From Ruditapes philippinarum (lineage: Eukaryota), in NCBI RefSeq assembly GCF_026571515.1, contig NW_026862398.1, positions 1 to 64,000 on the forward strand: a DNA stretch of 64,000 bases, written 5' to 3'. The notes under the pieces were generated by a model. The model did no database searches. It saw only the letters and a list, made by a program, of their open reading frames with translations, and had not been told where the DNA came from. Both the position numbers and the translations under genes were made by a program. Within the stretch, counting starts at the first letter, position 1; each line of letters starts with the position of its first letter. This document shows, piece by piece, positions 240 to 64,000 of the stretch.

Positions 240-790
240 ACACGAGTGCTATGATAGGAGAACAATGTTCTTAAGTTTTCTTTATCTATACAATTGTATA
301 CATTTAACATGATACTCAAGTTTAGGGTTAAGTTTAGGGCCAATATAGCAAAGTTTACAGCATCATTTAGTTTCGGCAATAAAATCGTCCTATTACCTTT
401 AATCCATTAGACATGGATCGTTATTATGCTCATGACCTTTGATAGATAAGAATAGGGTAGGTTACACAATGGTATTGAATATCAGTGTCTTATGGAATTA
501 AGAGAAAAGTTGTTACCGTTAACAATTAAGGTAAAATAATTCATTTATATTATGTACGTTCTTATTATATTGCAACTTGCACTTTTATTAACGTTTATGC
601 TAATGTTTAAAATAAAACACATCATGTACATTTGTATCTGCATGATATTTAATTTATTTGTTCATTCATTGAAATGTTTTCTTTTTTCTTTTACCGAGCA
701 TCTTCTCATCAAAATGTTGTTGTTGTAAAAGCAACATGGAATTAAAAACATAATAATCTTTACAAATCCTTTTAAATTCAAAAAAAAAAA
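240..790 (+). pseudogene. Degenerate C-terminal part of a TLR-like gene (LRRCT, TM, start of cytoplasmic region)
   Basis: Hydrophobic run FIYIMYVLIILQLALLLTFMLMF at ~540-610, then HVHLYLHDI in another frame. Cys-containing LRRCT-like remnants precede it. Many stops and frameshifts. Confidence 0.4.
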
Positions 791-799
791 AAATCAATA

Positions 800-1030
800 T
801 AACATATGACACCCGCTTTAGCGGTACTCAGTTTTAAACACTTAAAAGTGCTGAAATCAATGATCCCGATTGACCTAAAAATATAACAACACTGAAGTTC
901 AAGCCAAGTTTAGCATTTAGCCTGCTGATTTTGTGTCATGTCCTTCCCTTGCTGTAAATTTGAAACAGTCCATCCAGTGTTTAGGGGATTTCAATATCAA
1001 AATAGTAACACGATGTACAAACTGACTGGG
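800..1030. mobile_element. Left half of the MITE that is complete at 8818-9200
   Basis: 800-855 matches the TIR at 8818-8870. The right TIR is missing because unrelated sequence starts at ~1040. Confidence 0.6.
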
Positions 1031-1054
1031 CAACGTTTATTACAACAGTTACGT

Positions 1055-1742
1055 ATAGGTTAGTGTTTAATAATATGCATTAACAAAAATAATTGGTCAA
1101 GCCTGCCGTAGGCAGGCGACCAATTATTTTTGTTAATGCATATTATTAAACATTAACCTATTTAATGATCAACATTATTTTTTTCAACTAACAACAAGGC
1201 ATTTCTCTAAATCACCTATAGCTCCGCCCTTTCGCTCTACAACATGTCTACACCTTGTCAAGTTGCTAACATGTCACATTTGGATAAGCTAAATAAATGG
1301 CCTAGGCACATTTTTTACTGAAATGTCACAGAATTTATACCTTTATCTACAGTAAGACTATCATGTTTATAATATGTCTGGAAAAAACAGCGAGGAAAAC
1401 AATGCAATAAGGTAAAAACAATGGAGTTAATGAAATGTGTACATCCTTTTAAAATAAATGGAAAATGTGAGAAAAAAATACATTAGAGATTATTCATTGA
1501 TACAAATTCGTTACTAGCTTCAAGTTATTCACTAACATTTAAAATCCCTATTGATTTGCTCATTTGAAAAACAGTTTATTTTTTTCTGTGTGAAGGGGGT
1601 CCATTTTCAATGAGTTTTCCAGCCAAAAAATGTAATCATTGTATTCTTGATATCAATGATTGTTAATGCAGTTTATTCCTATCAAGTGAAAGAAAATAAT
1701 GTTTTGGTTATGATTTATGTCATAATGTTATTATTACCTGTA
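1055..1742. mobile_element. A1-specific insertion with a terminal ~107-nt foldback (non-autonomous DNA element, family uncertain)
   Basis: Absent from A2. 1055-1161 is a near-perfect inverted repeat with tip gcctgcc-gta-ggcaggc. The right boundary is inferred from A1/A2 homology resuming near 1755. Confidence 0.55.
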
Positions 1743-1989
1743 GTCTGACTGCTCTGTACATGTATGACATTTGTACGACACAGAATATCATATTAATCGT
1801 GAGCTGTTTCTTTTAAGTTTTAGCTCATACCCCTGTGAAAAACAACAACAGAATAATATACGTTAAACACTAACACACTAACATACAAAATTACATACAC
1901 TCGCAGCAGTTACTTCTTCTACTTATGATAAAGATTGTAGAATGAAAAAAGCGATATTAATTAAACTAAATGAGTGATTGGCTTGGGAA

Positions 1990-2520
1990 TTGCATTTCGA
2001 TTATCTCTCATGAACAAGGTGCGAGGGGTGTTGCATTTTGATAACCTCTACTGAACAAGGTGCGAGGGGTGTTGCATTTTCCATTATCTTTCATGAACAA
2101 GGTGCGAGGGGTGTTTCAGTTTTCATTATCTCTCATTAACAAGGTGCGAGGGTGTTTCAATTTCCATGAACTCTTATGAACAAGGTGCGAGGGGTGTTGC
2201 AGTTTCCATTATCTCTCATGAACAAGGTGCGAGAGGTGTTGCATTTTTCATTGTCTCTCATGAACAAGGTGCGAGGAGTGTTGCGTTTTTCATTATCTCT
2301 CGTGAACGAAGTGCGAGGGTGTTGCAATTTCCATTATCTCTCATGTACAAGGTGCGAGGTATGTTGCATTTCAATTATCTCTCATGAACAAGGTGCGAGG
2401 AGTGTTGCAATTTTTTCTTCCCTCATGAACAAGGTTCGAGGGATGTTGCATTTTCCACTACCTGTCATGAACAAGGTGCGAAGGGTGTTGCATTTTCCGT
2501 TATCTCTCATTAACAAGATC
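1990..2520 (+). repeat. ~42-bp minisatellite (~12-13 units)
   Basis: Tandem units of consensus TGCATTTTCCATTATCTCTCATGAACAAGGTGCGAGGGGTGT. This explains ORFs 2166 and 2176. Confidence 0.95.
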
Positions 2521-4650
2521 AACTTTGTGATTTTCAAATATATTGTTTGTTTTCCTTACTCGAGAGCGCGCGTTCCTATCAAAAATGTTTCCTATTCTTT
2601 TAAAAAGACGGTACTGTACACTTTCAAATTTGGCATAATTTCCGTTATATGAATTGTGTACAGTTTTGTTATCCTCTACGGATCATCTTTGTGTTTTACA
2701 ATAATTTACAAAACTCGTAAACTTACATAAAGTTGAGTGTCAGACGATTATATATCTTCATCTCATATTTACTAACAATCGTGGGACGTATAAACTCTTA
2801 CATTTGAAATTATGTCTGGCACATTTGAACCATTTATTGTATCATTGACAAACTTGCTACTGATACTCATTACACAAAACCTTCTGAATTCCATTTAGTT
2901 TTATCGAGCATTAATTTATTAAAGGAATTCCACTGAGGCTCTAAAGCCTAAAAACGAGGAAATTGAAATTGTTAAAGAGATTAGAAACGGAAATAAATTG
3001 CAAAAGGTAATGCATAAAATAATAAAATGATAAGAATTGAATTAAATTGAATTTCTTTTGCGATTCCTAACCCGCTGAGTTAAAGCAAAAGCGTCTGAAC
3101 GCTTTTAATTTTAGGGGTAATTTTGCACAATTCCAATCACTATTCTGGTAAACACTGTAAGCGAATGATTTGAAACTTTGCATTATACCTATTGCATGTC
3201 AGGACGACCTACATCCAATAAAACGAAAATATCGAAAAATTCTTATCCGTCATGCCAAATACAGAATACCGAAATATCCAAAGAACGCCCAAAATGCCAT
3301 AGGAAAAAAAAATCAGTGGAACAAAGGTCAATACCGGAATATTTGTTAATTAAGATACTTGTGTTATTTAAAGAAGGCTTTCGTTAAAGATTTATTTTTC
3401 ATTTGGTAATATCATCTACTGCAGTTTACTTTTTCTCAATTGTTTAAGTCTCAAATAAACCCAATAACAAATAAAGAAATACCCAATGCTGGTCTTTGGC
3501 ATACAAGTGTGCAAAAATATATCATTGAGCATTTTATTACCTAATAACATAATTTTAAGACGTTTTCATTAAGGCTTTTCGGCCGAAAGCCGCCTGAAAT
3601 CAGGTTTGTCTTCCTGTACATTTTACTAGGAAGAAAAGAATATAAAAATAATTTTTCATTGGTTAACTGGAATCTTGAAATTGGAAATCTTATTTGCCAT
3701 TACCTGATTACCTGTGTGGTCGAGGTGTTAGAGTCGATGACTTCTAATCCATTTACCTTTCTGGCGTGGGTTCGATCCCCGGGAGATGCTTTGGTAGTTT
3801 AGCGCGGAGGAAGGTAGTCTAGTACTGGTGTAACTCTCCAGGAACGATGGTTAGGAAACTACCCGCCTGTATGACTGAAATACTGTTGCGAAAAGGCGTA
3901 AAATGAAACAAACAAACAAACTGTCTGAAATTGCAAATACAAAATTTTAAGCCGTTTTCACGAGGGGTTTGTTTTACCTTTCCATTACAATTTCCTGTTG
4001 AAACGCTATGAACTCCTCTATTTTTCCAGCGTCTGTCTTATAGATTTAACACATTACAAAAATTTAAATTAACAAGCTTTCAAAATCATTTAAGATAATA
4101 AAGCACCTAGCTGTGACAACATCGACAAATCTTGAAACATTCAAAATATGCTAATATTAAAACGCAATTTAGAATATGATTTATTTATTTATTTAGATGA
4201 AATATCTGAAGATATCTCTACTATCTTAGGAGAAGCTATGTAAACACATGTTCCTTAATTGCATGTTAATCTGATAAGAAGTACATAAACAATTAGGAAA
4301 TATCTGACTGTTCAACTTCTAAAATGCTTTGGATACATGTATTTTGTATAAATAGATACTTTGAAATAGATAATTTCAAACAAATTTCTCGAGGACAACG
4401 CTTATCATTAAATAATAGTACATGTATGTTTAACTACTTCAAGGATTTACTTTAACTCTGTTGCATCCTGCTTACTTTCATGTTTAAAAATCTACTGTTT
4501 ATTGTCATGCAAACAAAAGATGCAGAAATGGATCCAGACCCAGACAGGTTTTGTTAGTAAATGAAAATAACTCGGCAGCTGTAGCAATTACCAATGATTG
4601 TATTTAACTATTCATTTCGAATAAAACAACAAAGTTTTTTGTATAACTAG
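2500..4650 (+). pseudogene. Degenerate multi-cysteine-cluster TLR-like gene (LRR, LRRCT, LRRNT, LRR, TIR), copy A1
   Basis: CDS*PAELKQKRL at 3059 (end of LRRCT). RPTSNKTKIS...CQIQNTEISKERP at 3205-3290 (LRRNT-like). EYDLFIYLDE at 4172 (TIR box 1-like), SRTTLII at ~4387, and NLLFIVMQ at 4489 (TIR C-terminal strand). The order matches TLR architecture. Interrupted by a SINE. Confidence 0.65.
3709..3920 (+). mobile_element. tRNA-derived SINE, A1-specific
   Basis: A box tggtcgaggtg, B box gggttcgatccc, 3' end atgactgaaatactgttg...ggcgtaaaa with an (aaac)n tail. The empty site is in A2 (ttacctgactgaaattgcaaa, ~11827). Confidence 0.85.
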
Positions 4651-4859
4651 TCTATAAAGAATGCTCAAATGAATTGATACAGAAAGTTGTAATGTCAACA
4701 AATGTTTGAAAGAATCAAGCATTTCAAAAGAAAAGGACTGATAAGAACGCTTCTATCTCGTAATATCGTATGATATTCGAATAATTTCAGGTAATCGACG
4801 TTCAAATATTTAGATGTTAAAAGGTAAGTAATTTCTCAGGATAGAGGAATTCATTATTT

Positions 4860-6790
4860 ATGAGTAAATGATAACAATGATAAACCCCTTCGTGTCACTT
4901 TTTCTCTTGTTTGAAAGAAAAACGTAATTCACTGCAACGAATTCATTGATCCCGACAGAAGATCTAATCGCTTTTTGAAGACACATATGAAAATTATGTT
5001 AAGATCTACAAAACTTTGACTTAAAGAGTTTATCATTCAATAGTATGTCCCAATAACATGGTATGTAATAGGCACTTACAAGCTAATACAAGTCGACTAC
5101 ACTTCTATCTTTAATAGAATTTTATGTTTTTATGAAAAGTGTTTAGCTTCAATCAGGTATGTTTATTAATATAAACCCGCTTTAATATATTTCGATATCT
5201 GAAAACATAATGCATAAATTATTACAAGACAATGTATTGCAATTTCCAATATATTGCGATATATTACACAACCCTAATTGTAAATCAAGCATACAAAGAA
5301 TATTACTTATCTAGTGTAAAACATATACTAGGAAGTATGATGTAGGCCATTGTAATGTTCATTAGTTTTGTGGAGACGTATCATTTAATTTAATCAGAGA
5401 AATTCTAAATTTGTAAAATCACGATTTAATCATTTTTATTACACGTGATGCTATAGTGTCTTGTTCGCCTAATGGAAATAAATTAACGACTTATATAGCA
5501 GACACACGTGTAATGACTGCAGTATGAAGTAACCAGGAAGATATCTGCTCATATTTATCTGTGGCATATTTGAAATATTACCGGCAGATAACAACAATGT
5601 ATTACATAAGGAAAAGTCCAGTCAGATATATAAAACTCTTCAGCATGGCAACCGCCAAGTTTTCCAACGAGTAATTAAAAGTGAGAAAAAAGCTTATCTA
5701 ATTGAAGAGAGATATCGTTGCTGTAGAGATTTTAATTAAATCTTTTACTGCTTGAACACTTCAATTATTAAATCAATTCCACCTATTCTTATTCCGGCAT
5801 CCATCATATTTTAAATTAAGATGGTTTGTACTATTTTTCGTTATTTTTGTTATAATATCATACTATTTATGATTTGAATATGCTGAAATTGTGTTAAGGA
5901 AAATCACGTATGTTTGTCTCTGTAAAAATGATTTTAATTTTTTCCTTATTTATATTTCACGCTTTCATGGCATTTTAGTAATGCTATACCGTGTCTTTGT
6001 TTGTTTGAATTTACTTCCTCACGCTTCTCATTAACATAATAGTAGCAATAACGCCAAGGAGCACTTGCATATACTGTTGTTGACGCTGACGAACAAATTC
6101 GATCGAATTATATAGACAGTATAAGAAACTAAATGTGTAAACACGTAATGGAATACAATCATATCACACTTACATTGTAAGTTGTCGTCTGCTATTGTGA
6201 TTTGCATTTTCTTTTTCTTTTCGTAATTTATGGAATTATATCGACTTTTAATTACATTGGAAGTGATAACAGACGCGCTGACACACTAACAAGGTAAGGG
6301 GCAGTGAATGTGATGCAAATAGAAATTGTAATTATGTGACGGCTGACGAGCGATTATCAACTTGCATATCAGAGATGCATTTAATACATTAAAATTACTC
6401 CTTGGATTTGATAAAATTATGATATTTATAGGTGTAATCTATCAAAATATTTACTCTTTGATGTAATGGTATTTTATACAAAAAATATAGTTGAATGTAA
6501 CAAAAAGATAATTTAAATAAAAACCATAAGTTATCGTTTTTCATATGCTTTGAAGTGGCGTAAAGATTTTGCGATGATAAATATTATATGAAGTTATGTC
6601 TGTTCAATATGCTTTATTTTAAAACTGACTCAGAACATGTTCTAATACTTAACAGAAATTATTTAGATTTTTCAGCCTTGCATTTACCATTTGTATTACT
6701 AATCACCCGTTAATCACCAAAACAGTTTCTGATATTTTAACCCTAGATGAATTAAACAGCATTTGACATGACTAAGATGTGTCATTTTAA
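4860..6790 (+). pseudogene. Degenerate LRR ectodomain remnant(s), copy A1
   Basis: LRR-like fragments DLQNFDLKSLSFN (~5003), IVSCSPNGNKLTT (~5453) and MELYRLLITLEVITDAL (~6230). No long ORF. Confidence 0.35.
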
Positions 6791-6817
6791 TTAAACAATA
6801 AAGTTTTTTTTTGCATT

Positions 6818-7404
6818 TTTGTGCGGCATACTAAAGAGTAGCATTATTTCTCCGTCGCCAGTCTGTGTGTCTGTCCGTGCATATATTTAGGCAGGTTCTA
6901 GGATGCTGCAGAAACAATAGGCAACTGTACTTTTCTATGATGTTATTCATTCTGTAAACTCTTACGTGGCTGTGTTTTTCCTAATGTGCAGAACATTTGG
7001 AGAACAAAAGAGTGGCCAAGCATCCAAATGTTAATACGTTCGTTTGTCCTTCCATCACAAAATTTACCGGACAACTCCTCAAACACTGTTGGTGAAAGTT
7101 CGTTCATCAAATTTTTAAAGTAATGATCATAATAATCAGTATTAAGTACAGTTGTGCATAGCATAGGCATTTTCCAGTGGATTTTTGTCAGAGTTATAGC
7201 CTTTCAATGATTTTGATTTTTAAAGTTTGTCCAGACTTTTTCTCTTACACTACTAATACAAGTTTAATAAAATGTTACAGGAATGATCTTACCTCAAGTA
7301 CAGGCGCAAATTTAACTTGTCTTTCAGTTGAATGATTTTGACTGTCCCAATCACCCCGCAATATAACTACTTAATTGGCATCAGGCGGCATTGTGTGCAC
7401 TGAT
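6818..7404 (+). mobile_element. HINE/Helentron-associated-type non-autonomous element (degenerate), A1 copy
   Basis: T-rich start, gtctgtgtgtctgtccgt microsatellite, internal repeat with gttgtgcata and cagagttatagc motifs, and end ggcggcat...tgct. The orthologue is at 14553-15102. Confidence 0.55.
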
Positions 7405-7549
7405 TGCTACCAGGGTGAGAAAAATGTGCAGCATGACCGGGACTCGAACCCGGGGCCCTCGCAATACCGTACCGCGGCTTTACCGACTGAGCTATCTGGC
7501 CGCTTAAACACCATCTCCCCTAAATAGTGAACAGTTCTGAACCGTGACA
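7405..7549 (-). mobile_element. ~145-bp TG...CA-bounded insertion with a tRNA-like Pol III head (solo-LTR-like or short tRNA-derived element)
   Basis: Absent from A2. Minus strand 7503-7427 reads GCGGCCAGATAGCTCAGTCGGTAAAGC...GGGTTCGAGTCCCGGTC, followed by CATTTTTCTC. The + strand ends are tgctac...gtgaca. Confidence 0.65.
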
Positions 7550-7859
7550 TACCATTTGAGTGTTATTGGCTTTAATTTTGCCTCCATTTGCCATGAAGTT
7601 ACTTGTTTCAAAATTAATAAAACATGCAATATTTTAATAAAAATATATAACATAAAAATATATAACATTGCCCACACAAATCGAACCAATCGAACCCATT
7701 ATTTATTCTGATATTATATTAAACACTTTCATTGTTATTTTATTAAAGTTTATTTTACCATGCAAAATTGCAAATAATTTACTATGATATGATATGATAT
7801 GATCTGATCTTGGTATATTTATGTGTGCTGACAGTTTAAATGTAGGAAATATCTAAATA

Positions 7860-8810
7860 ATGCGCAAATAATTACCCTTGCTTGAAACAATGATATATTA
7901 TACACATTTGGCTCGAATATGGGCGATAGAAATGCGCTTGCATATAAACTATATACAACGCAACTTGTGATTTTATTACAAATAGCATACAATCAGGAAT
8001 TCGCTTAAACATCTTTAACTCAGAAAACTAAATTGCATGATGGAGTAAACTTATCGTTATATCATTAAGTTGAATAGAACGATTTAAAACCCCAATAAAA
8101 TATCAATTTCATGTATGTTATCATCATTTAATTGATGCACGAAGTAAATTGCATTTGTATGGCAACAAGTTTCAGAGAAAAAATGACAAATACAATACAC
8201 ATTTGTTTATTTGATAGTGATGATAGACAATATATTCATTTACAAATAATTTACAAGAGTGCTAGGATAGGAGAACGTTGTCCTTAAGTTTTATTTACCT
8301 ATACAATTGTATAAATTTAACATGATACTCAAGTTTAGGGTTGATTTGAGGGCCAATATAGCAAAGTTTACTGCATCATTTAGTTTCGGCAATAAAATCC
8401 TTCTATTACCTTTAATCTATTAGACATGGACCGTTATTGTTCTAACGACCTTTGATAGATAGGAATAGGTACGACATAATGGTAGATTGCATAATGGAAT
8501 TGAATATCTGTGTCTTATGGAATTAGGAGAAAAGTTGTTACAGTAAAAAAGTAAGGTAAAATAATTTATTTATATTATGTACGTTCTTATTATATTGCAA
8601 CTTGCACTTTTATTAACGTTTATGCTAATGTTTAGAATACATCATGTACATTTGTATCTGCATGATATTTCATTTATTTGTTCATTGAAATGTTTTCTTT
8701 TTTCTTTTACCGAGCATCTTCCTATTAAAATGTTGTTGTAAAAGCAACATCGAATTAAAAACATAATAATCTTTACAAATCTCTTTAAATTAAAAGTTTT
8801 AAACAGTATT
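7860..8810 (+). pseudogene. Degenerate TLR-like remnant (LRR/LRRCT, TM); paralogue of 240-790 with extra upstream part
   Basis: KLHLYGNKF or NCICM at ~8145, DRYCSN at ~8430, TM-like hydrophobic run at ~8565-8630. Confidence 0.4.
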
Positions 8811-8817
8811 CAATATA

Positions 8818-9200
8818 ACCTCTGGCACCGGCTTGAGCGGTGCTCAGTTTTAAACACTTAAAAGTGCTGGAATCAATGATCCCAAAAGATCTAAAAATAT
8901 AACAACACTAAAGTGCAAGCCAATTTTAGCATTTTGCTGCTGATTTTGTGTCATGGATTTTTCTTGCTTTAAATTTGGAACAGAATTTGGAACTGTCCAT
9001 CCGATGTTTATGGGATTTCAATATCAAAATTGTAAAACTGAGCCACCAACTGTGTAGAGCCTGGCCAGGAAACACGGATGTGCAGGCTGGCTTGTGTACT
9101 ACAAGAGTTACAACAGGTTAGGGTATATACGATTCAGTGTTATCTTTTCCAGCACTTTTAAGTGCTGAAAATTGAGTACCGCTCAAGCCGGTGCTAGGGG
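8818..9200. mobile_element. MITE with ~52-bp terminal inverted repeats, containing a nested fragment of a second MITE
   Basis: 8818-8870 (cctctggcaccggcttgagcggtgctcagttttaaacacttaaaagtgctgg) is the approximate reverse complement of 9149-9200. The interior 8930-9120 carries cacggatgtgcaggctgg. Confidence 0.85.
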
Positions 9201-9223
9201 CCGTGAGGGATGTTACACTCATT

Positions 9224-9530
9224 CATTATCCCTGATGTACAGACTCATGTACAGACTCAATCAAACCGAGTCTGCAATTTTCATGTAATTTTGTTGTGAT
9301 TAATGCTTCCGAGGGATCACTTTTCTTCCAGATTTTTATATATTAAAGGTCTTGACAAGATAATGTTATGCTACTCGTGTTCTCTACAAATGAAATATTA
9401 TTTTTCTATTTGTTCATGCACGTTTTCATTATCCATCATGTACAGACTCAATCAAACTGAGCCCAAAATTTGCATGCAATTTTGTTTTGATTAATGCTTT
9501 CGAGGGATCACCGTCCTTCCAGATTTTTTT
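9224..9530 (+). repeat. Local ~105-bp diverged direct repeat
   Basis: cattatcc...atgtacagactcaatcaaac...gattaatgctt.cgagggatcac...cttccagattttt occurs at 9224-9337 and 9427-9530. Confidence 0.8.
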
Positions 9531-10224
9531 TGGCAATGAAAAAACTTCTGCTCATATCAATGTTTTATTGACAGTAAGAACTGATTAACATAATAATAGG
9601 CTTATTCGATGTATTAAGCGGCACATGGAAAACACATTAGTTGTTTGTTAGAATGTAAGCAATCAATACGTAGTAATTTTGTAAGCAGTTTTTTGCAAGC
9701 AATCAGCATAGAACACGTATTGTTATGATTTATGCATTACCTGGAGTCTCCCTGCACTGTACATGTACATATATTTTCAAGACACACAATAATATTAACT
9801 GCTTCTCCGTCCTCTTGGAGAAAAAAACAACAAAAAAACAACAACAACAACAACAATAACAAAACAATAAATGTTAAACACTAAGACATGCACTCGTAGC
9901 AGATACTTTTCTGTACTTTTGAGTAAAAAATGTAGAATATCTACTAAAGTATACTGATTGAATGAAAAATGCGACATAACAATTCATGCATTTCATAAAT
10001 TCTTTTATACCATATTTATCTGGTTAAATGGATGCATTACAGATAACAGTGAAAGTCATTCTTACTAGCTTTTCTCTGTGGTGCAGTGTTTTGCATTGTG
10101 TTGCACCGTACTTTATCTCATTATTGATGTTCTTTTCTTTTAGTTCTTTGGGATAGGTTGACTTCCAGTCCGCTTTGTGTTAAGGATTGAATACTGCCTG
10201 AGCTAGTGCTCGAAGGACGCAAGG

Positions 10225-10630
10225 GTAATGCATTTTCCATTATCTCTCATTAACACGGTGCGAGGGTGTAGCATTTTCTATTATCTCTCATGAACAAGGT
10301 GCGAGTTGTGTTGCATTTTCTATTATCTCTCATGAACAAGGTGCTAGGGTGTTGTATTATTCATTATCTCTCATGAACAAGGTGCTACGGTGTTGCATTT
10401 TTCATTATCTCTCATGAACATGGTGCGAGGGGTGTAGTATTTTAAATTATCTCTCATGTACATGGTGCGAGGATGTTGCATTTCAATTATCTGTCATGAA
10501 CAGGGTGTGAGGAATGTTGCATTTTCCATTATCTCTCATATACAAGGTGCGAGAGTTGATGCATTTTCCACTATCTCACATAACAAGGTTCGAGAGATGT
10601 TGCATTTTTCATTATTACTCATGAACAAGA
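10225..10630 (+). repeat. ~42-bp minisatellite (~10 units), paralogue of 1990-2520
   Basis: Same unit, tgcattttc.attatctctcatgaacaaggtgcgag. Confidence 0.95.
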
Positions 10631-12620
10631 TCAACTTTGTGATTTTCAAATATATTGTTTGTTTCTCTTACTCGAGAGAGAGCGTTCCTATCAAGATTGT
10701 TTTCTATTCTTTTAAACAGACGGTACACTTTCAAATTTGGCATAATATCCATTATTTAAATTGCGTACAGTTTTGTTATCCTCTACGGAACATTTTTTTG
10801 TGCTTACAATAATTTACAAAACTCGTTAATTTATATGAAATTGTGTGTTAGCCGATTATATAGCTTTATCTCATATTTACTAACAATCGTGGGACGTATA
10901 AACTCTTACATTTGAAATAATGTCTGGCACATTTGAAACATTTATTGTATCCTTGACAAACTTGCAACTGATACTCATAACACAAACCCTCTGAATTTCA
11001 TTTAGTTTTATCGAACATTAATACATTAAAGGAAATCCACTGGGATTCAAAAGCCTAAAACGTGAAAATTGAAATTGTTAAAGAGATTAGAAACGGAAAT
11101 AAATTTCAAAAGATAATGTAGAAAATGAAATGAATTGAATTGAAAATGCTTTTTTTGGCGATTCCTAACCCGATTTGAGCTAAAGCAAAAGCATCTGAAC
11201 GCTTTTAATTTTTGGGGTCATTTTGCACAATTCCAATCAGTATTCTGGTAAACTGTGTTAGCGAATGATCTGAAACTTTAAATTGTACTTATTGGTCCTC
11301 ACCTACATCAAATAAAACGAAAATATCGAACAATTCTAGTCCGGTTATGCCAAATACAGAATACCGAAATATCCAAAGAACTCCATATGCCATAGGAAAT
11401 AAGAAAGAAACAAACAAAAAGCTAAGCTGAATCCCACAAAATTAGTTGCACCTTGAAAAATAATATGTCAATACCGGGATATTTGTTTATTAAGATACTT
11501 GTGTCATTTAAAGAAGGCTTTCATTAAAGATATATTTTTCATTGGTAATAAACTTTACTGCAGTTTACTTTTTCTCAATGATTTAAATCTCGAAAAATCT
11601 GAAATACATTATCATGGTATTTGACATACAAGTGTACAAGAATATATCATCAAGCATTACCTGTCTGAAACTGCAAATACATAAGTTTAAGACGCTTTCA
11701 TCAGGGCTTTTCGGCCAAAGGCTTCCTGACTTCCTGTAAAATTTACTAGGAAGAACTGAATATAAAAAGAATTTTCATTGGTCATTTTAACAATAAAAAC
11801 TTGAATTTGGAAATCTCATTGACCTTTACCTGACTGAAATTGCAAATTCACAATTTTAAGCCGTTTTCATGAAGGTTTTACCTTACCTTTACAATTTCCG
11901 GTTGAATAGTTACAAACTCCTCTATTTGTTAAGTGTCTGTCTTATAGTTTTAACGCATCAAAAATTTAAACTAACAAGCTTTCAAAATCATTTAAGATAA
12001 TAAAGCACCTGTGAAATCATTGATAAACCTTGATATCTTAAATATTCAAAGTATGCTAATATTAAAACGCAATCTAGAATATGATTGATTTATTTAGATG
12101 AAATATCTGAAGATGTCTCTAATATCTTAGGAGAAACGATTGAAACACATATTCCTTCATTGCATGCCAGTCTGATAAGAAGTACATAAACAATTAGGAA
12201 ATATCTGACTGTACAACTTCTAAAATGCCTTTGATACATGTATTTTGTAAAAATAGATAATAATAGTTAGATAATTTAATATAGATAATTTCACACGAAT
12301 TTCTCGAAATACTAGTAAGTTTAACATGTATTTTAATCATCAATATGTGATTGATATGTTAGTAATGAACGAAGAAATTACGTTTATCTCTCATAACATA
12401 ATTCGAACTACTTCAAGGATTTACTTTAACCCTGTTGCATCCTGCTTACTTACATGCTGCAAATCTACTGTTTATTGTCATGCAAACAAAAGATGCAGAA
12501 ATGGATCAAGACCCAGACAGGTTTTGTTAGTATATGAAAATAAATCCGCAGCTGTAGCCATTGTTGTATTTAACTATACCATTCAAATAAAAAAAAACTT
12601 GTTTTTTTGTATAACTAGTC
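10610..12620 (+). pseudogene. Degenerate TLR-like gene, copy A2
   Basis: YIKGNPLGF (~11022, LRRCT start), CQIQNTEISKELH (~11348), LHLEK (~11447), KRNLEYD (12065, then frameshifted), ITFISHNII (~12376) and NLLFIVMQ...YMKIN (~12462-12545). Confidence 0.65.
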
Positions 12621-12799
12621 TATAAAGAATGCTAAAATGAATTGATACAGAAAGTTATAATGTCAAGAATCAATCATTTAAAAAAATGACTGATAAGAAC
12701 GCTTCTATCTCGTGATCATATGATATTCGAATAATTTCAGGGAATCGACGTTGTTAAAAGGTGAGTAAATTTCCCAGGATAGAGGAATTCATTATTTAT

Positions 12800-14520: not shown

Positions 14521-14552
14521 ATTTTAATTAAACAATAATGTTTTTTTTTTCA

Positions 14553-35990: not shown

Positions 35991-35999
35991 GGCAAATCT

Positions 36000-48355: not shown

Positions 48356-48389
<34 letters not shown>

Positions 48390-51650: not shown

Positions 51651-51698
51651 TATAATCGAAATGTATTAAAATATTTTGCTAGGTCATATAAAAAATGT

Positions 51699-51976: not shown

Positions 51977-53439
51977 CGTGATTTTAAATTTCTTAGTCAG
52001 CACATTGGCAATTTAATGCAAGACAAAGTGTATAAGGCTATTAGGTTTTCACTGACAAACCAAATGATTTATGAGAAGAAATGGCTTTACTTCATTGATA
52101 ACAGGTCATAATGGATAGAATAATTTATTCAGGTCATGTTGACAGCCGACGGGTATATCACTGAAATTGTTACAAATCGACTAACAATCATAAATCATCG
52201 ATTGTTTCGTATTCGTACAAAAGCGAGTTAAAAAAAGAGTTATACTTTATGCTTGATTTTAGATTATAGTTATTGAATATGTTTTTATGGTGATTTAGAA
52301 TTTTTTTTTAAATATTTATATCATCATATTATCAAAATATCTAAGATAAAACTGTTCGCAATTAAACCTTATCTTTGAAGTAACATGTCTGTATGACAAG
52401 AGTCTGTATGACAAGAATGTCCTTACTCTCCTAAATATTTGAGATGTTTAACGATAATACATCACATCACTTGTTAAATGGCTTTAATCATTCGTCCTGA
52501 TGTTTTTTAATCAAAATCCAAAGATTAATATCAGTGAAATATTTTTGTTTCAATTGCATTTAAACTACTTTAACAATTTGAAGACATTGAAACTGTCTTA
52601 CACTGCACTAGAAAAAAAATGTTTATGCAAACTGCTTAACTGTTGAGCTTGCCTCGTGCTACATGTTATACTTTTGTTTACAGATCATCATCAAACATCC
52701 ATGTACTTGAACGTAAGACAGTGGAACATTAATAAAAATGAAAGCAAGGATTTATTATAAAGAACATACAAATGTACATTGATTAAATAAATGATGTTTG
52801 TGATGATTGTACATTTTTTGGTAATTAGGTTTGCGCATGCTCGAAATCGTGGATGACCTACTAAAACAGATTTTTCTTCCGTACTTTACGAACAAAGTTC
52901 ATTAACGTTAAATATAATGTTCTCTTTGATGAGGCCATAAAAATGAAAAATAAATGTGATTGTACATGTTTTGAAATTAAATTCTCATATAGCAAGTTAC
53001 GTGTATACATGTTTTCAAATGCTTAGACTAGCCTTAATTGATGCCACACATACATCTATTTTGTAAGTTAACATCTTGGTTATGTTTAAATTGGAAGTTT
53101 GAATTTCATCGCATTTACTTCGGACAATGACATCGGACAACTGTAACATACTTTTACATTAAAAGGCTACATGAAATACAAAACGGCTTTTCAATGTGTT
53201 GCACAAAACGTTTTAGTATCACTGCCTTACTTTACACCCATTGGTGTTTGGTAGCTTGCATTTACTGTACCGCTCATGAACGTGCTCTTTTTAAACCAAC
53301 CCTGAAATATGTTTACTTTTTTCGTGTTGGACGGCCTGTTAAGTATTTATTTTTACATTTGTTTGGTTATTCAATTTGCTTTAACGGATTTATTATTTTA
53401 CTAATCAAAGTATCAATTTAATGTCCCCAAAAGCGTAAT

Positions 53440-54850
53440 AGAAATTTATTAAAAAGTAACATACAAATGTATCAACATCATTTAAAAGAGAATTATACAT
53501 TATATATATATGTTACGATGTCTCTTCAAATTGATAGATAAACAATCAACATTATTTCTTAAAATTTGATATAGATTGTTTTTTATTTGGTTATTCAACT
53601 TCTTATGGTGGCAAATGGGCCGACGTAGCGATCACATTAATTTTGATTGAAGTGTTACATTCCTTCATAAAATATTTCGCATGAGTATATAAGATTGGTG
53701 TGAACTTACATAACTTGAACAAAGCGAATTCACTTGAGACCATTGATCCCACCCTCCCCAAAAAAGATAAGTGACTGTCACAAATTTAGTGTTTGATTCG
53801 ATGTGAATTTAATAAAAAAGACAATGCAAATATATGAAGAAAAATATTTCCATTCTATGACATGGTGATAACTATATGCCATGGTATTTCAATATATTGT
53901 CCAAACGTTATAGGGTAATGGAAATATTTCACATAAGTAATTTTACACCTGTGTTATATCTTCAAAGAAAACACTTTAACAAATGAAAGATAAATGGTCA
54001 ATATTGACAAGGCAAGGTGACAAAAAAGCAAACAATTCAATCGTTTCAATGTCCAGATGACACGAATGTTTAAAATGAAGTTACCTCTTTTAAACAACTT
54101 GTCAGTTTTTATTAATGTCCTGTTATTAAACGGTTTGATCATGATAATTTCTTAAGCAACTTGTGCAAAACTTGTTTGAGATAAATCTTTGAATATGTGA
54201 AGTAATAAATATATTTATAATAATATCATCTCCTAAACGATACAGAACATGCTGATCGGTAAAGGGAAAACATTGTTCGATTTGTGTTGCAGAAAATAAT
54301 CAACGAATTTTCAGTTTAAAACATACATGTTTAAGAGAAAAAACCCAACTTGCTAAATAATACATTCAAATAGCCACTCACATGGGCAACACAAAATAAA
54401 CGTCATTGTATTGTGTCAGAATTATATAGAAATTTGTTATTTTGAATCAACTAATGTTTCAAAATGTTAATCAACCCAGTTTCTTTTTATTCTCTTTTAA
54501 ATTTGTCTGCTTATTTCGTAATTGGCATCATTTCAAATATTATATTTTACAAAATGCGCAAATGGCGGGGTTTACGACATTTCGTCGAAAGGTACTTTAT
54601 AGAATACGAAAATTAACAGAAGGGACTTATTATAGAATGGACTACTGATAGAGAGCGACAGATTGACTGTTAAAAATGTATTATTTTGATTTCGTGTATA
54701 CTGGTTATGTTATGCCATTTGAAATTCTTCATAAAGAGGCACAATATTCGATAGTCTCAATATAAGCATTACTCAATTTGTAAGTAGTATTATGTGCTGT
54801 AACTAAGAAATTGGAATTCTTAATCCTATTTTTTGGTACAGGACTTTCGA
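53440..54850 (+). pseudogene. Degenerate TLR-like gene retaining TM and TIR remnants (unit B5)
   Basis: Homologous to 22050-23800 and 30370-31150. Hydrophobic FLFILF*ICLLIS is followed by FQILYFTKCANGGVYDIS (54531-54584) and KINRRDLL. Confidence 0.5.
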
Positions 54851-57800
54851 TATACGAACTCCTGAGTTGATAATTAAGATAGGAAGTGTCAAGTCATTGC
54901 CCAATAATGTTATCTATAATGTGAGTATTGTAAAATAGAAAGTTTCCTGTCATTGAAAGTGCTCAACGCGTACCAGAAAGATTGTATAAAAATTCACACG
55001 TCATGCTTACACATTAAATCTTATAATCTGAAAGTTTTGTTTAATGTAGTGTCAATATCAACAAATAAATTACTTTCCTGTGATACTTGACAAGAGCTTA
55101 ATTATTTGCAAAATCATCTGTCCAAGAGGCAATCTTGTGTCTGATAAGACAAATCTCTTATTTGTTTCATTCACCTTTTTGCATTTTTATAGAACATAAC
55201 TAAAAGGTGTCGCATTTTTGCCAATGTGAAAACAATAAATATGTAATATTATATGAAATTGGTAATCAAATGTTCTTTGTTTAAATAAAAAGGCTATAAT
55301 ATGCGGTCTCTTCTAATTGTGAGATACTAGTAACATGCTAAAGATGCACTACACACGACAGAAACATTGAAATAAGTTTATGGCGGCGCTTTCATTGGCA
55401 TAAACTATTAAGATTTAACATATATCTATTGCAAGAAGTAAAGTAAGAAGTCAGATCATAAGAAATATTGCACATGTTCAATTAGAGTTAATTATCATTT
55501 CTAAATCTCTTAGTGAATCTCCAATCAAAATGTTTACTGTAAATAGTAAGAGATTGAAACCAAAGGTCATTTTCTATTTACCTCGAATTTCTTTGTTGGT
55601 CATTTGACTCATACTTCCTTTATGTATCTCAGTTAAAATTATCGCTAAAACGATGTTGCTTTTACAGTAAAATGAAACCTTATTAATTTTACATGGGTAT
55701 ATGAATAAACATAAAATTTCAAATTTTGAAATTAAACAACATATTTATATTACATTAGTTTTTGAAAATTTTAGGTTGTTTATTTTGTTAAGTATTATTT
55801 AATATCCGGTTTAAGAAGCAAAACATGTCCATTCGTCGAAATCACAACGAGTGTTTTTTCATACAATATGGGTATAAATTTGTTAAAATTGAAATTAAAT
55901 ATTTTATTTGTAACAATATCCTCTTGACATTTCAACCGTGTACACGTTGTTCTCATATATAAACCTTCTAATGCAATGAAATTGAAGCCAGATATTTTGT
56001 AATCATGACTTAAACTATGAAATAAATGGTCTTAAATTCAGGGGAAAAATGATATGTATACTGGCTTTTTTCGTTTATGAGATAAAACCAGTCACATTTA
56101 AAATTTTTAAAGAGATTTCTTATTTCTTTTGAAACAGAAAAATATATATGTGTTTTGATTTGATTTAGTAAAACCAATTTTAATTTCACATGGACCAGTA
56201 TAAGGTCTGTTTTAATTTTTTGTTTTTTGTTTGTTTGTAAAGTTACTTCTGTTTGATTTTAGGAATAATGTAAATGAATACACGTAATTGACTGATCATT
56301 CATGCAGCACATCTTGTTAGTTTGAAAAGTTTGTTGCTTAACATAATGTTAAATCCATTATCAATTCTGCACAAAGGAAACTATACGTTTTTGAATATCT
56401 AAATGTCGTTAGAGCAAAGGGATTTGTGTTCTGCAATTATCGTTACCGCTAATCACCTTAAAATTGAGCATGCAAATATCTAAACTTGCCTACACTTTTA
56501 TCAGATTTTTAATAAAAACGTTACAGAAAATGTCAGATCTTGTACGAAAGTAATCAGCAGTTTTAAGATTGATATCCGACAGGTTGTCTGTAATTTACGG
56601 CATCGTTTTCTGTATCAGCTTTACGATAAGTATAATTATAAATTATGTATCCAAAAGACAAAATATTTTCTATGCACATACATAGTTTGATAATAATAAA
56701 ACTAAATTGCTCTTACTAACCAATTTTGAGATACTTACGCATATTTAAGTCTTATTTATTAGTCTCTCTTCTTTATTTTGTCAGTGATATACAAATCAGA
56801 CTCAAATTGGTATTTGAAAACAAACATCTATATAATTATGTGTAAATATGTTACTTAATATCATTACATGTATTTGATTTCTTGTGACTTGTAGGCCAAT
56901 GGGACCGGGTGCTATGTTATTTTTTCTTGTAGATATGCATTGCAGTAAATATGCACTTGTCACGATAATAAAATAATCACTCACTCACTCAGTCACTCAC
57001 TCACTCACTCACTCATATTTGGTTTTATTGCTCTCATCAGTGCTGTCCTATTTCTGTAAGGTGATGATGAATTGGTCATATTTACTTATGTAAATTAAGG
57101 AAAATATATGGCCATTAAAAGCACTATACAGATTATATATCACCTTTAAAGTATTGTTAATGAGATAGTATATGGCCCCTGTGTAGTATTTATGTTCAAC
57201 TACCATATAATTTTATTCATTTCAAACGTAAAGTCAGAAGAAATGTATTGACTGGCCATCTGATAAACACCATATATATTTATCTTATCCACTTGATAAT
57301 GATATATCTTTTTATGTTCAAATAATGTCATAATAAAATCTATAGGTTCAACGACTTGTGAACATGAAATAAAAGTCAAAAACATGATTTAATTTTTACT
57401 TTTCCGCGCGCTACGATAATATTTTTCTTGCTTATTTCATATACTGAATTTAGTGACAGACACAATTTTACATACAGGAAAACAACTATCGCCTAAAATC
57501 TAAACGACTGTAGCTATTTCTTTTAAAATTTTGTATTCTCAGTAAACACGTTTGGAGAATTCATAACCGTAGGTAAAGGGTATTTAAAAGTTTAAGTAAG
57601 AATCATAGCGGGAAACTAAGCTAGCGTTTTTAATAATATCGGTATAGTTTCACTTCACTTGCATACTCCATGCTTTTGAATTACACTGATTTATATGTAA
57701 AATTTACGGTGTCATTCTTAACTCGTGATACTCTGTATATACGACTCTCTTATTGTTAAAGGTTTATAGTTATAAGATATTTAGTTCTTTTCAATGGGGA

Positions 57801-59080
57801 AATACATTTTGAATATACTGAAGAAGCAAATATAATCAGGTATTTAATTTCATTTTCTTACTTTAAGAAAAAATATGCTTGTAGTTTCAATATATCTGAA
57901 AACAGGCAGATCTTTCGAAACAATGCAAACAACAATATTTTATGAAATTTTCACACTTGGTTTCGTTTGTTTGAATCTGCTATGAGATATAATGTAAAGG
58001 TGCAACATTTCTCTAAAACCTAAACTTAAACAAGGATTGTTTAACAAAATGTATGTATGAATCTGTAACTTTCATATTATTAGAGATTTATAGTATATTT
58101 ATGACACAAAATCAATCGATTTAAGAAATTGAAATTTTCTTTCTGAAGTGCCGTTTTAATTCAAGAATCAAGTATTCCTATTTCACATTGATTTTTTTCA
58201 AGTAATATACAAAGCATATTTTCTTGGACAATACATCTTGTAAATAATGACACTATTAAAGGGTAAAATTCAAATGTTAGGTATTGAATGTCTAGTGTAT
58301 ATTTCTTTTTTGTTTGGCTACTTTATTATTTACAAATGATGTATTTTCTACTTGTATATATGAAACGTGACAACAAATAAGACTTCAAGGTTCATTTTGC
58401 CTCGGAAATGCTATCATGTTTATTTCCCAAAACTATTTATGTTGTTTCCTGTTTCATTTTTAAAACAAAATACTTATTGGCCATGTAGATTAAGCATCTT
58501 TTACTTCTTTTTCTCTGTTGGAAATTGGTATAATTATATTGCATTAGTATTATGTAATGGAAGTCAAATTACTACTTTGTTTACATTTTGCTACCTTTAC
58601 AACACTTCACTGCGCATTCAGCGATATTTTCTTTCAGTTGTTACACATCTAATGTGCGCTTCATCCGTCTTTAAAACATTTTTAAACACATTTTTACATC
58701 CCTAAAGAATAAGAAAAATATGGATTTCTGAGGCATAATGTGCCTTTAAGTTACTTTTTTCGATGAGAAGACGTCTTTCCGTCCCTGATAGCTAAACTTT
58801 GCTTGATACATTGGCAAGCAAAATACACGTTTTTTTTCAGGGACTTACCTACCAGTTTTGCACTAATTTCGATTTGAAAAATAGATAAGAATTGTTTATG
58901 AGCGTGATAAAGCAATTTTGTTTGCGATAATTACACCAGTTAATAATGAGTTCATAGGTGATGTCAATACCTTTATTTCTTTACTTCTTATGATCAGTCA
59001 AAGTGAAAGTTCTTAATTGAAATGAATTGAAATGAATTGTAAAGATAGAAATATTACTATGTACATGAATGTTTTGTATA
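54850..59080 (+). pseudogene. Degenerate LRR ectodomain remnants (end of unit B5)
   Basis: LKVLNAYQ...YNLKVL (54953-55040), IDISDR (~56568) and NCKDRNIT (59035). Blocks are homologous to 37390, 25020, 47520-47820 and 48060-48230. Confidence 0.45.
56965..57015 (+). repeat. (TCAC)n microsatellite preceded by AATAAA, possible LINE 3' tail
   Basis: gataataaaataatcactcactcactc... Confidence 0.8.
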
Positions 59081-61615
59081 TAATCTGAAAATAAGAGAGA
59101 AAGAAAAAAACAGCAAAAAAGGATGAAAGAAAGGCTTTCCTCCAAACAGCGTCAGAAATCACGATTGTAGGTTAAATTGTCTTAATGCTCTAATGCTCGT
59201 TCTTCTCTTGTTGACATTTCATTTTATAAATTACACAGAAGCTTAAAATGCATGCATATCGTAGCACAGCATTGTGCACTTTCATATGATTGCGTTTTTG
59301 TGTGTAAAAAGACCAGACGTTAACGGAAGGTAATCAAAGGTCATATTGAAGTTTAGTTATTTCCTAAATATAGCAAGAAAGAATTTCATTCTTGTAGAAA
59401 CATTTTAAAATTATCTAGCAATACCAATAAATCAATTTTGTGAAAATGAACATATTCGTTTAAAGGTGTTTTTCTTTATTTCATTATATGTGCATAATAT
59501 ATTGTGGTCTTAAGACAAGGTAAAATGTGGTTGTCTCGGTATATCTCCATTGAGCTTAATTCAAGTATTTACCTTAACCTTTAATCAACAAGGACTGACA
59601 TTTGAAACAAAGTTAAATATGGTAAATTATCTTATTTTCTTACCTAATTTTCCCTTTGTATACCTAGTTTTATGTACTTTGAACGATGTTTTGCAAGTGT
59701 TTTCCCATTTAGATGACATATGATACATTTTATCTTTATGGTGTTTAAATTGATGATATTATCTTACATGTTTTTTAAAGATGTTAAAAGGACGATCTAA
59801 CATTTAAATGTTACTTTAAGGCAAAGTTACATGGGAAAAATAACAACAACGACGAAGTTATTGGCCTATTGTACTTATTTATGATACTATAATTAATAGT
59901 GTTGTAATGTATTTGTTATTTTTGGGAAAACTTTAAAAAATAAAAAATTTTGGGGTTCCCCATGTTGAAGCAAATCAATTAAACTTTTTAAATTTTTTTT
60001 ACTGCTTTCAAAACAAAATAATATATTTTTTCAATTTTCCCCTTTAAATCTTTAAAAATTTAAAAAATTTAAAGGTCAATTAAGAAGAAAAATTATCAAA
60101 ATTTTATTTTTCACATGTTTTTAATATGCCGACCCTATCGAGAAAATTTCTTTAAGAAAAAGTCAATTAAGCTAAAAAAAGCCCTTTAGGCTCCCTAATT
60201 AAAAACATTGAAAAACCAGTTTTAAAATTCCCAAAAAAATATATATCTAAAAAATACCCGGGTATTTTCAAAAATTTGAAAATTAGTTGTAACCAAGAAT
60301 TGGCCCCTTGTTGTCAGATTTTAAATTGGAAAGAATTTTAAATTTTTTAAAAAAGAAATAAAAGAAAAAAAAACTTTCCTTTTTGTTGTTTGACAGAAAA
60401 ATAATTCAATTTTAATCAAAACTTTTAACCCACTTTTTTTCCCAAATAAAAGTTTCAGGGGTAAATATAAAAGAAGCCTATTCCATTTTTTATGCCAATT
60501 TTTATCAAAAATTATATTTCCCCCTTTTTTTAAATGTCTTGCCCTACCCCAAATTTTTTTAAATTTTTTTTTAAAATTATACACATTTCTATAATTTTTT
60601 TTTGGCCCAATATCTTTTTTAAAAAAAAATCATACTACCCTTTAAAAGGGTTTTTTAGGTTTTTAAACTTCATGCAACGTATATTAAAGGTGGTTACATA
60701 TCGATTTACTTATAGGCAGGATAAAAAAAATTGTTTAAATATTTTTTAAAGTGACATTATGCTCATTTTTTTTATCAAGTTGAGCTAAGCAAGTTATATA
60801 TTTCAAAGGATTGGTCATTACAATGGTTATTGACCAAAAAAAAAATCATAATAAAAATGGTGAGGATAAAATATTTCAAAAATGCTTAAAACATACAATG
60901 GCTGCTGTACGATATGTTGTATTTAATCCGCTATGTCTATATGCAACTCTAGCGTGTGACTATGACCAAACTTGTTGAAAATATATTTGATATAATGAAG
61001 AAAATGTAATGAAGAAAAAAAACTTTTTTATTGCAATATCTAAATAAATGATAGTAGGACTGTTAACCAATCATTGATAAAAACAGTCCATTTGTTGTTC
61101 CGAATTCTGATTCAATTACATTTTGGGACAAATATAATATATAATTGCTCATTTAATGTATCTAGATAGCGTTGCATTAGCTTTCTTCCCTTTCTAGTTG
61201 TGTGGTAAGTGTTTGTTATAGGGAATACCATCGTTCCCATTCCTAAATTCAGTGTAAGTGAAACAAGGAACACTTAGGTAAATATCAGTAGTTGACAGAG
61301 TGAACACTGATATTTGTAATACGTATACTATTGTTTTATATGTAAAGGAAAGAAATATTCCATTGACATATCCTTTGCTAATATTTTGTTATTAGTTTTT
61401 CTAGTTGTTATTATGTAAATATGTTTGCAAGAGGCATACTTTCCATTGGGAGAGAGCCCTAGCAAAGCACGACCATCTATTTATTTCATTGAATAATTTA
61501 CAAAAACACATTTATAGCCTCAAATACGTTGTATGTGTTTGTTTTCTATGTTGTGGGAAATAAGCATCATTAAAGTTTTGAAATGGACACCAAATATATA
61601 TTTATGTGTCTATAT

Positions 61616-62200
61616 CAGAACAGGACAGGACAGGACAATATTTTTATTTGTAGACTTGAGCTCTACGTTCCTCGTCTATATAAATACAATACATATAATA
61701 CAAAAGTCAAATCATTTATAGCATGAATACAGAGAGAGATAATTAAACTTTGTGAATAACAATTTATTTGTTACAGAAACTAATGCAATGCACGTAGTAC
61801 AAATCGCCACAGTAACTCTGGCAATTTCTGAATATAACGTATTTAATTTAACAAATGTGTCTAATGTAGGTTATACAAAACTTCAAATTAAAGCAGTTCG
61901 TTGGATCTGATTTTTAAAGCACAATTAAGATAACATGCTAATTTGTTTAAAACATCTATGTTTGTGACTGACATTAATTCGAGAAATTTGAACATGCTAG
62001 GTCGTTCAAAATAATAACTGTCTATGTAACGTTTCCTAATCCATTTATACTTGGGACACATAATAACAAAATGGAACTCATCTTCAATATCAGAGGAATT
62101 ACATATTTTACAACGTCTTTCAGTTCTTTCAATTCTATTTTGTCCATACTTTCCTGTTTCGATGCGTAATTACATGGTTGATATTCGGAGTCTGTAGTTA
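61616..62200 (-). mobile_element. 5'-truncated LINE: ORF2 C-terminal CCHC region, 3' UTR and (CCTGT)n tail
   Basis: Minus strand reads RLRISTM*LRIETGKYGQNRIERTERRCKICNSSDIEDEFHFVIMCPKYKWIRKRYIDSYYFERPSMFKFLELMS...RSNELL*, with the stop at 61890-61888. AATAAA then a tgtcc repeat tail. Confidence 0.9.
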
Positions 62201-62209
62201 TGTTATGTT

Positions 62210-63100
62210 TGAATTATATCAAAATTCTAGTTATATACCACTGAGTTTTGAAGTAAGATGTGTAAGCACATTACTAACAAATTTGTATTTTAATCATGAT
62301 AATTATATTGATACAGAAAATATTTAACTACATCTTTTAACCAATGTACTCTGATAAACGCCGTTGGTGTTTTGAGCTTCTTTTTGATGTTTCAAAATTC
62401 GGTTTTGAAGCGTGTCAATAAATGCATAAATGTTTGAGATATAAAAATGATAATGTTTATCAAAGCTTTGAACACTCGTATAACTACGCATTGAGAAACT
62501 CAAAACAGCAATATCATTTAATTAGATTTTATGTAAACCATTACATCTGTATTATCTAATATATCAACGCAATTATAACACATCAATTTACATCAGAAGT
62601 AACAAATATGCCGGTTGTTTCCTTGGTATAAATATTGTATTTAAAAGATGTGTTGATAATTGTACTAACTGGGCTGTTGCAAACAATATTATCGAATAAA
62701 AGTTAAAGGCTTTTTAGACAAGCAAAGTTTACGCAAACGTACAATGGCTACAAAGAATGGTTTAACACCACAGCTATCTAAAGCATACCTTGAGAAGAAC
62801 CAAGTAAAAGCTTCCATCGTGACAAATATCTTTAATAGATCTGTTCCCGTCAGTACGTGCAAGTCGTTCAGAAGACACTCTGAAATGCGAAATAAATAAA
62901 GACCAGAACGTGTACCTGCGCACCAGCTGCCAATGTCTTGACGACTGAAAACCGAAGTTTGAGGTTTGCGGCCCTACAAAGTAGGCAGGGACGACGAGTT
63001 AAGTGCTTTTGAGCTTCGCAGCCGAACAAGATTAGATAATCTGATAATACCATTGTTTATTTCTTAAGCAAGCTTGAAGTACAAAACATATTGGTATATG
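62210..63100 (+). pseudogene. Degenerate TLR-like ectodomain fragment with LRRCT-LRRNT junction
   Basis: EDTLKCEINKD (62871), then frameshifted RTCTCAPAANVLTTENRSL. This resembles the LxC...CPxxCxC...P..N junction of multi-cysteine-cluster TLRs. Confidence 0.5.
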
Positions 63101-63479
63101 TTGTTCGATGAAATGAAAAATAACGTTAGCATTAGATAGAAAAAAGTTAACTTGGTGATCACAAAGACGATATATACGAGTAATACGTAATACCGTAATA
63201 ATTGAAAGTATGGTCCTTTGAATGTTTTGCTAATGTTGTATCAAAATAACAATAATCACATATTAAGCACGTTGTATAAAATCATATCACAAACACGTGT
63301 CTCCTTTCTATTTTGCATCATGTTATGAAATATCAATATAAAAACTAAAATTTGATATAAAAGAGAGAAAACCATAAAGTTAACGTGATCAAATCTAAAG
63401 AGAGTAGCATGTTAAAATTATGTTTAAATCAAGAAGGCAAAAACATTTTATTTCATTTACGATATCTCCTTAAATTGAA

Positions 63480-64000
63480 AATGTTTAATCTATATTAATA
63501 ATCAGCATTATTTTACATAGAAAGACACAATTTGCCTACGGAAACAATTTTACCAAAGTAATATACTTTTACATGCGAATCAATTAAAATTGTTGTTGGT
63601 GACAACTTGGGTGATGGGGGTTCTGTTTTATTATTCGATTGCAGTAATATTGTTAAAAGGGGTTTTCATACGTTCTACAATCGGATATAAATTCTTAAGA
63701 GCCAAATTCTGAACACTTTTAAAATATATGATTAAACAATTAGTACTCCCGACTTTTGTACATTTTCACATTTTCATAACTTCATGCCGTTTTAGTATTT
63801 CATTTAATTTAATAATGCAAACAGTTGTTTTACACAATTTGTGAAATAATTATATTGAAGTATTCAATATTCGCAGCTTATTACAAGTTTCTAAATAGTA
63901 GTACATGTATTTCATTAATTAACTTGGAAGCGCTTCCAAACTGGTTCTTTTGAAATCGTATGCTTACCGAAAATCAAATTGTGTATCCAAATTAAATAAA
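63480..64000 (+). pseudogene. Start of another degenerate LRR/TLR-like gene, running off the window
   Basis: FTCESI...LLFDCSN (63568-63648, LRRNT-like), TFSHFHNF (~63760) and INLEALPNWFF (63918-63950). Confidence 0.45.

Follow-up and report, generated by a model that had tools for sequence, protein, structure and literature searches.

Can a stretch of bivalve DNA that holds no open gene be the remains of a cluster of immune-receptor genes, and did its many copies arise through many gene deaths or through the copying of a few dead blocks? This question is raised by 64,000 nucleotides of the Ruditapes philippinarum genome (assembly GCF_026571515.1, contig NW_026862398.1, positions 1 to 64,000 of the forward strand; hereafter the window), which a first-pass annotation, made from the letters alone, had described as a window-wide, one-strand array of decayed Toll-like receptor (TLR) genes. 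We find a tandem array of co-oriented copies that have diverged neutrally, without codon rhythm, and that multiplied after gene death, not through 15–20 separate deaths. Judged from its sequence, the array is likely of TLR origin, and this holds more for one of its modules, H1, than for the others.

A head-to-tail array of gene-sized modules

The window is AT-rich (about 30% G+C). Self-BLAST placed 39,843 of the 64,000 bases in same-strand duplicates and 1,284 in opposite-strand ones, the latter being short repeats. Duplicates cover 86% of positions 1–15300, 66% of 15300–50500, 44% of 50500–57500 and 4% of 57500–64000. Thus, the one-strand array described earlier is real, but it does not extend through the whole window. 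Together with DNA profiles, the self-comparison reveals adjacent, co-oriented, colinear copies of more than 1 kb arranged head to tail, i.e., a tandem segmental duplication. It comprises two families: family A has two units of 7–8 kb (83.5% identical over 6,041 aligned bases), and in family B, H1 and H2 modules alternate through five units at 18389–57455 (65–74% identical). All hits of the H1 profile (13/13) and of the H2 profile (19/19) lie on the + strand. Counting two modules per A unit, a division made by eye, there are 15–16 gene-sized modules from four ancestral ones (H1, H2, Aa and Ab), in keeping with the 15–20 remnants first proposed. Within 18000–37900, unique sequence agrees closely with DNA contigs from two further studies (at 37068–37501, for instance, a single difference in 434 bases); therefore, the array is genuine and not an assembly artefact.

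Also as first noted, open reading frames (ORFs) reveal no genes here. None is of gene length; the longest stop-free frames (148–160 residues) all lie inside minisatellites, and outside these the maximum is 124 residues. The open frame of LRRs, transmembrane segment and TIR domain that a functional TLR would have is absent from the window, which has no long frame and whose unit consensuses are closed as well.

How the copies diverged was assessed from the three-base periodicity of their mismatches. The period-3 power ratio was 0.79–1.36 in all 20 comparisons within the window, against 12.9–34.3 in three of three control pairs of live TLR paralogues, although the H2 values carry less weight, since stretches of that alignment are of low quality (distances near 0.5). 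Only the B1–B2 comparison of H1 fell below p = 0.05, and its signal is weak (ratio 1.36, p 0.03); the A1/A2 ratio of 0.91 indicates neutral divergence. Among gaps between B copies, 84 of 506 were multiples of three. The copies thus combine disablements with neutral evolution, as pseudogenes do, and the earlier picture of a neutral graveyard of co-oriented, gene-sized remnants stands.

The consensus of the copies tells when the reading frames were lost. The H1 consensus has 18.4 disruptions per kb (shuffles, 19.2) and a longest ORF of 69 residues; the H2 consensus has 17.2 (shuffles, 16.7) and one of 78 residues. When decay from an intact TLR was simulated, three-copy consensuses in six of six runs kept 0.4–6.7 disruptions per kb and ORFs of 151–751 residues. 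For family A, with two copies only, this test of ancestral openness is weak. Being as broken as shuffled DNA, the consensuses show that the blocks were dead, or had never been coding, when they were amplified. The modules are therefore copies of four ancestral modules, dead when copied, and the 15–20 independent birth-and-death events first suggested are not supported.

Traces of a probable TLR ancestry

In their supplement, Saco et al. 2023 (PMC10279657) list about 2,980 TLRs, including a large heterodont group of single-cysteine-cluster TLRs (sccTLRs) of 730–750 residues with a divergent TIR. About 60 proteins, with sequences to 400 residues, were compared with the modules by eye, not by alignment, and all likenesses described below are of that kind. 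Along 1.9 kb of H1, about 12 words match sccTLRs of Mercenaria, Cyclina and Dreissena in order. The cap CNKT...LPN...GKILKQTDR at 40018 resembles the family cap and its GKI..ETF. In hand counts, SNGSVYF near 28265 is followed by LK 24 residues on (24 in the family) and by LLDLTKRHQL 52 residues on (53 in the family), and LERNSLYKM at 34434 by IP 39 residues on (38 in the family). YYENIIL occupies the position of the family LRRCT; then come, in family order, KKKKMKMQQ...ILDG...EKRF near 50270, CMFDRHL at 35458, LCRTK...KE at 35517 and KIYTE near 35655. Family-like words are fewer in H2 and the A modules. In the parts compared, the closest proteins include, for H1, Mercenaria XP_045213288.1, XP_045156979.1 and XP_045210807.1, all of about 730–750 residues, and, for H2, those of the type of XP_045206120.1. 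Cap, LRR words, LRRCT, basic juxtamembrane stretch and divergent TIR words thus follow one another as in the family and are in part spaced alike, and gene size agrees too, since modules of 2–2.8 kb fit intronless genes of 730–750 residues; the array differs in having deletions, dozens of disruptions and no open frame.

On the H1 consensus, the scores of motif chains were reached by 13/300 and 6/300 shuffles (p about 0.02–0.04) and that of L..N.LY.M alone by 1/300, with motifs picked post hoc, after the window had been seen. Several observations weigh against a TLR ancestry. In no motif chain did the H2 or A consensus stand out from shuffles; a chain of seven motifs that included generic LRRs was null for all three consensuses (on H1, 246/400 shuffles), and the best window-wide chains (85 and 73) did not exceed the shuffle maxima (95 and 80). 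The path traced through H1 needs about 10 frame changes and two deletions; it has lost 150 residues to deletion, and its TIR is 15 residues short. The TIR-like end of H2 adjoins the start of H1, and H1, H2, Aa and Ab share no similarity with one another. Moreover, hopping freely between frames against some 60 proteins invites chance likeness.

To the same side belong the null results of the formal searches. Nine stop-read frames from three regions (4.5 of the 64 kb) had no TIR or LRR in Pfam, and a phmmer search of 1.84 billion representatives with the best TIR-like stretch returned only three unrelated repeat proteins. With 120 and 299 TLRs as queries, tblastn matches fell on both strands and none was significant; the best of each query set (E 0.025 and 0.011, respectively) lay on the − strand. 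Frameshift-aware profiles, a decay-aware one included, scored no better than shuffled sequence, whether run on the window or on the consensuses. Further searches were likewise negative: Pfam gave only sub-threshold matches for 11 stop-free frames; none of 86 candidates in a word search with the TIR-like stretch of A1 was a TLR; two frames of 48 and 61 residues had no usable match in a protein atlas; viral and prokaryotic collections held no such family (0/120 loci); and exact-word look-ups in the TLR table of PMC10279657 found no close relative among the parts compared. Neither H1 (z −0.05) nor H2 (z 0.48) has an excess of open frames on the + strand.

These nulls have to be read against the reach of the searches. 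The query set consisted of 120 TLR-bearing loci from metagenomes (six of six checked were LRR–TIR proteins) and was later enlarged to 299 TLRs; additional homologue searches yielded mostly annelid-type TLRs, few molluscan ones and none of the clam family, which the sets, seeded by a canonical TIR motif, missed. Furthermore, a simulated dead mollusc TLR scored 17–34 bits at 0.25 substitutions per site and 13–29 bits at 0.35, about the same as the shuffle maxima of the window (17–23 bits). TLR searches therefore lose power at about 0.25–0.35 substitutions per site, and the relevant family is absent from the sets. As a side observation, host-associated metagenomes are rich in long animal TLR reading frames (L001–L120), and two TIR genes (L025 and L026) lie on one contig.

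In sum, the proposed TLR origin gained a by-eye colinearity with heterodont-clam sccTLRs and no significant search result; the match above shuffled background, whose lack had been named as refuting it, did not appear with any TLR set used, all of which lacked the clam family. The individual motifs fared unevenly. All 13 of 13 occur on the + strand and the − strand has none, which is no test, as they had been read from the + strand. Thirteen of 16 motif sites lie in duplicated blocks, whereas TFRGANSLE (51099), CTCAPAAN (62911) and PPDLAP (18090) lie outside the array. GYxxxxPxRDFIV (35674), taken for TIR box 2, reads, by eye, over the last part of the putative TIR in a different frame and is probably off-frame. 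The internal LRRCT/LRRNT cluster of mccTLR type is not supported: the mcc-like profile, of low power with its 25 annelid-type TLRs, stayed at shuffle level, CTCAPAAN is outside the array, and the likeness seen by eye is with TLRs of the single-cluster type.

Three candidate signals were rejected. The top peak of the TIR profile (7376–7503) owes its score to the head of a tRNA-type short interspersed element (SINE) at 7428–7501. A scan for ‘ghosts’ of codon usage tracked G+C only. The apparently open − strand of H1 (z −3.2) has near equals elsewhere, since 3/8 tests on control sequence from beyond the array reached z −2.4 to −2.8; moreover, the H1 frames contain no motifs.

Weighing the explanations

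Somewhat more guardedly than TLR origin as such, we consider it probable that the array is a neutral pseudogene graveyard of sccTLR origin, amplified after death, encoding nothing and most likely without function. An old cluster of intronless sccTLR genes of the heterodont-clam subfamily would have lost its function, and the dead genes would have decayed and been compacted through deletions. Repeated head-to-tail copying of two-gene dead blocks followed, as the tandem layout shows, most simply through unequal crossing-over. The copies went on to gain the substitutions without codon bias, frame-breaking insertions and deletions, SINEs, miniature inverted-repeat transposable elements (MITEs) and minisatellites that they display. 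The same layout would result if the duplicated DNA had never been TLR at all but intergenic, intronic or some other dead gene or element, with TLR-like words arising by chance in a three-frame reading of AT-rich sequence. This has the formal searches, every one of them null, on its side, as well as the + strand without open-frame excess, the three quoted motifs outside the array and the SINE head beneath the best TIR-profile peak. We nevertheless regard it as unlikely, if a serious contender, because the matches to one clam TLR subfamily over 1.9 kb of H1 are ordered and in part exactly spaced, the modules are of a size to suit the intronless genes of that subfamily, and simulated dead TLRs vanish from the searches likewise.

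The neutral graveyard of sccTLR origin also has to be set against readings that give the copies a life of their own. Classical birth-and-death, in which 15–20 TLR genes duplicated alive, served and died one by one, has precedents in the tandem duplicates of mussels (PMC10279657) and in sea urchin TLRs (67/253 pseudogenes; PMC3367398), and would find a hint in the weak periodicity of B1–B2 H1. Nineteen of the 20 comparisons have no such signal, and the consensuses are closed, unlike those of all simulations from an intact ancestor; this reading is already contradicted, and we give it hardly any credence. An equally small chance falls to an array kept or amplified for a function, be it as PIWI-interacting RNA (piRNA) precursor, as long non-coding RNA (lncRNA) acting on live TLR mRNAs or as a reserve of LRR sequence that could serve gene conversion as donor. 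In its favour are the single orientation of the array and its size, and nothing else. Tandem duplication preserves orientation, so the shared orientation of the remnants needs no small-RNA, lncRNA or donor explanation. Moreover, the copies are 18–35% or more apart without homogenisation, live genes are further still, and such divergence makes a poor substrate for gene conversion. Silencing would, in addition, require transcription of the − strand. Two sequencing runs labelled RNA-Seq (X23 and X24), compared over 18000–37900, say nothing about expression: 97% of placed reads run on into unlike sequence, the loose ends start at GATC and depth is equal in both directions, so that they look like Hi-C DNA. 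On sequence grounds, a small-RNA, lncRNA or donor role thus appears unsupported. Slimmer still is the chance that a dead TLR block was amplified for its own activity, supplying piRNAs or a lncRNA that tune the live TLR repertoire; if true, a mollusc would have turned immune pseudogenes into a non-coding regulator.

Among known systems, the tandem TLR expansions of Mytilus (PMC10279657) likewise consist of one subfamily multiplied in tandem within a bivalve genome; there the copies are intact and under selection, whereas every copy of the present array is dead. The main text of that study does not contain the string ‘pseudogen’. In the purple sea urchin, TLR pseudogenes range down to ‘highly divergent sequence fragments’ (PMC3367398) but sit among live genes; here, 57 kb hold no live gene and amplification followed death. 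The literature searched, which lay mostly outside subscription journals, showed no account of a bivalve TLR array that is dead throughout. Should the TLR origin be correct, gene counts would understate the turnover of TLRs in bivalves, since such remnants escape annotation and Pfam. Pseudogene counts would also overstate past functional diversity, as about 16 remnants here go back to four ancestral modules that were dead before they multiplied. The significance of the array itself is modest, and it has the appearance of ordinary genomic debris.

Units, repeats and mobile elements

All units lie on the + strand. By self-comparison, unit A1 spans 218–8230 and its direct tandem copy A2, neutrally diverged, 8231–15300. 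Within A1, two putative TLR-like remnants were delimited by eye: Aa, reaching to about 4700, with LRR-end and TIR-like words at 2940–4500, and Ab at about 5000–8000. The window has two 42-bp minisatellites and one of 45 bp. The former lie at 1990–2517 in A1 and at 10222–10629 in A2; the 42-bp repeat thus predates the A duplication. The latter (about 1.7 kb, 16251–17938) splits a 3′ fragment of H2 (15903–18031) into 15903–16206 and 17948–18031.

In family B, as delimited by DNA profiles and self-comparison, B1-H1 (18389–22451) is the most diverged H1 copy, 34–35% from the others, and its middle retains about 550 nt beyond B2. B1-H2 (23425–27789), with SFKGL at 23743 and KYDLYLF at 27736, is broken up at 25506–26866 by a MITE and a 983-bp insertion-plus-duplication. 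B2-H1 with its 3′ flank (27786–30694) served as reference for the traced sccTLR-like order (by eye, N-terminal cap at about 28150, LRR block at 28670–29000, TIR-like part at 29470–29900); it also holds a short local tandem duplication (29995–30079 and 30106–30189, 78%). B2-H2 follows at 30765–33253. B3-H1 (33662–36297) carries the best motif chain of the window, formed by the above LERNSLYKM, CMFDRHL, LCRTK and KIYTE, and includes the window's run of N (about 35000–35130). B3-H2 (36292–38797) has lost most of its 3′ part. B4-H1 (39794–42797) has FCNKTMLYLPVLP at 40018 and a SINE at about 41560–41670; B4-H2 (42805–49200), with IQNLDIS at 43641, is split by 2.3 kb of single-copy DNA (45111–47449). 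Of B5-H1, fragments are left at 49592–49649, 50243–50460 and about 53357–53742 (span 49592–53742), with mostly unrelated DNA between them, and B5-H2 survives in five pieces (53843–57455). Faint traces of a further unit occur at 58971–59086 and about 63400–63650 (span 58971–63654), the rest of 57500–64000 being outside the array. In the H1 tree, the B2–B4 copies are equidistant (22%), whereas the H2 tree pairs B1 with B2 (18%) and B3 with B4 (23%), which points to duplicated blocks with shifting boundaries.

A 379-bp direct repeat, 99.7% identical (25506–25883 and 26488–26866), consists of array sequence and MITE. The 604-bp insert between its copies reaches a depth of 213 in sequencing run X5, against about 10–20 for unique DNA, and is thus an element present in many copies; the duplication that flanks it is unusually long. 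Palindromic MITE-like elements occur at 1055–1161, 25641–25870 and 33531–33658, the one at 25641 being extremely abundant in the genome. SINE-like insertions lie at 3717–3920, 41560–41670 and 45547–45616, the last two related and in opposite orientation. The tRNA-Pro-like head at 7428–7501 on the − strand (Rfam 29.5 bits; also ARAGORN) is missing from the A2 copy and probably belongs to a SINE. On the − strand at 61891–62169, a stop-free frame of 93 residues resembles the C-terminal end of ORF2 of a long interspersed element (zf-RVT E 0.058, sub-threshold). The SINE and MITE sequences of the window appear akin to elements of venerid clams.

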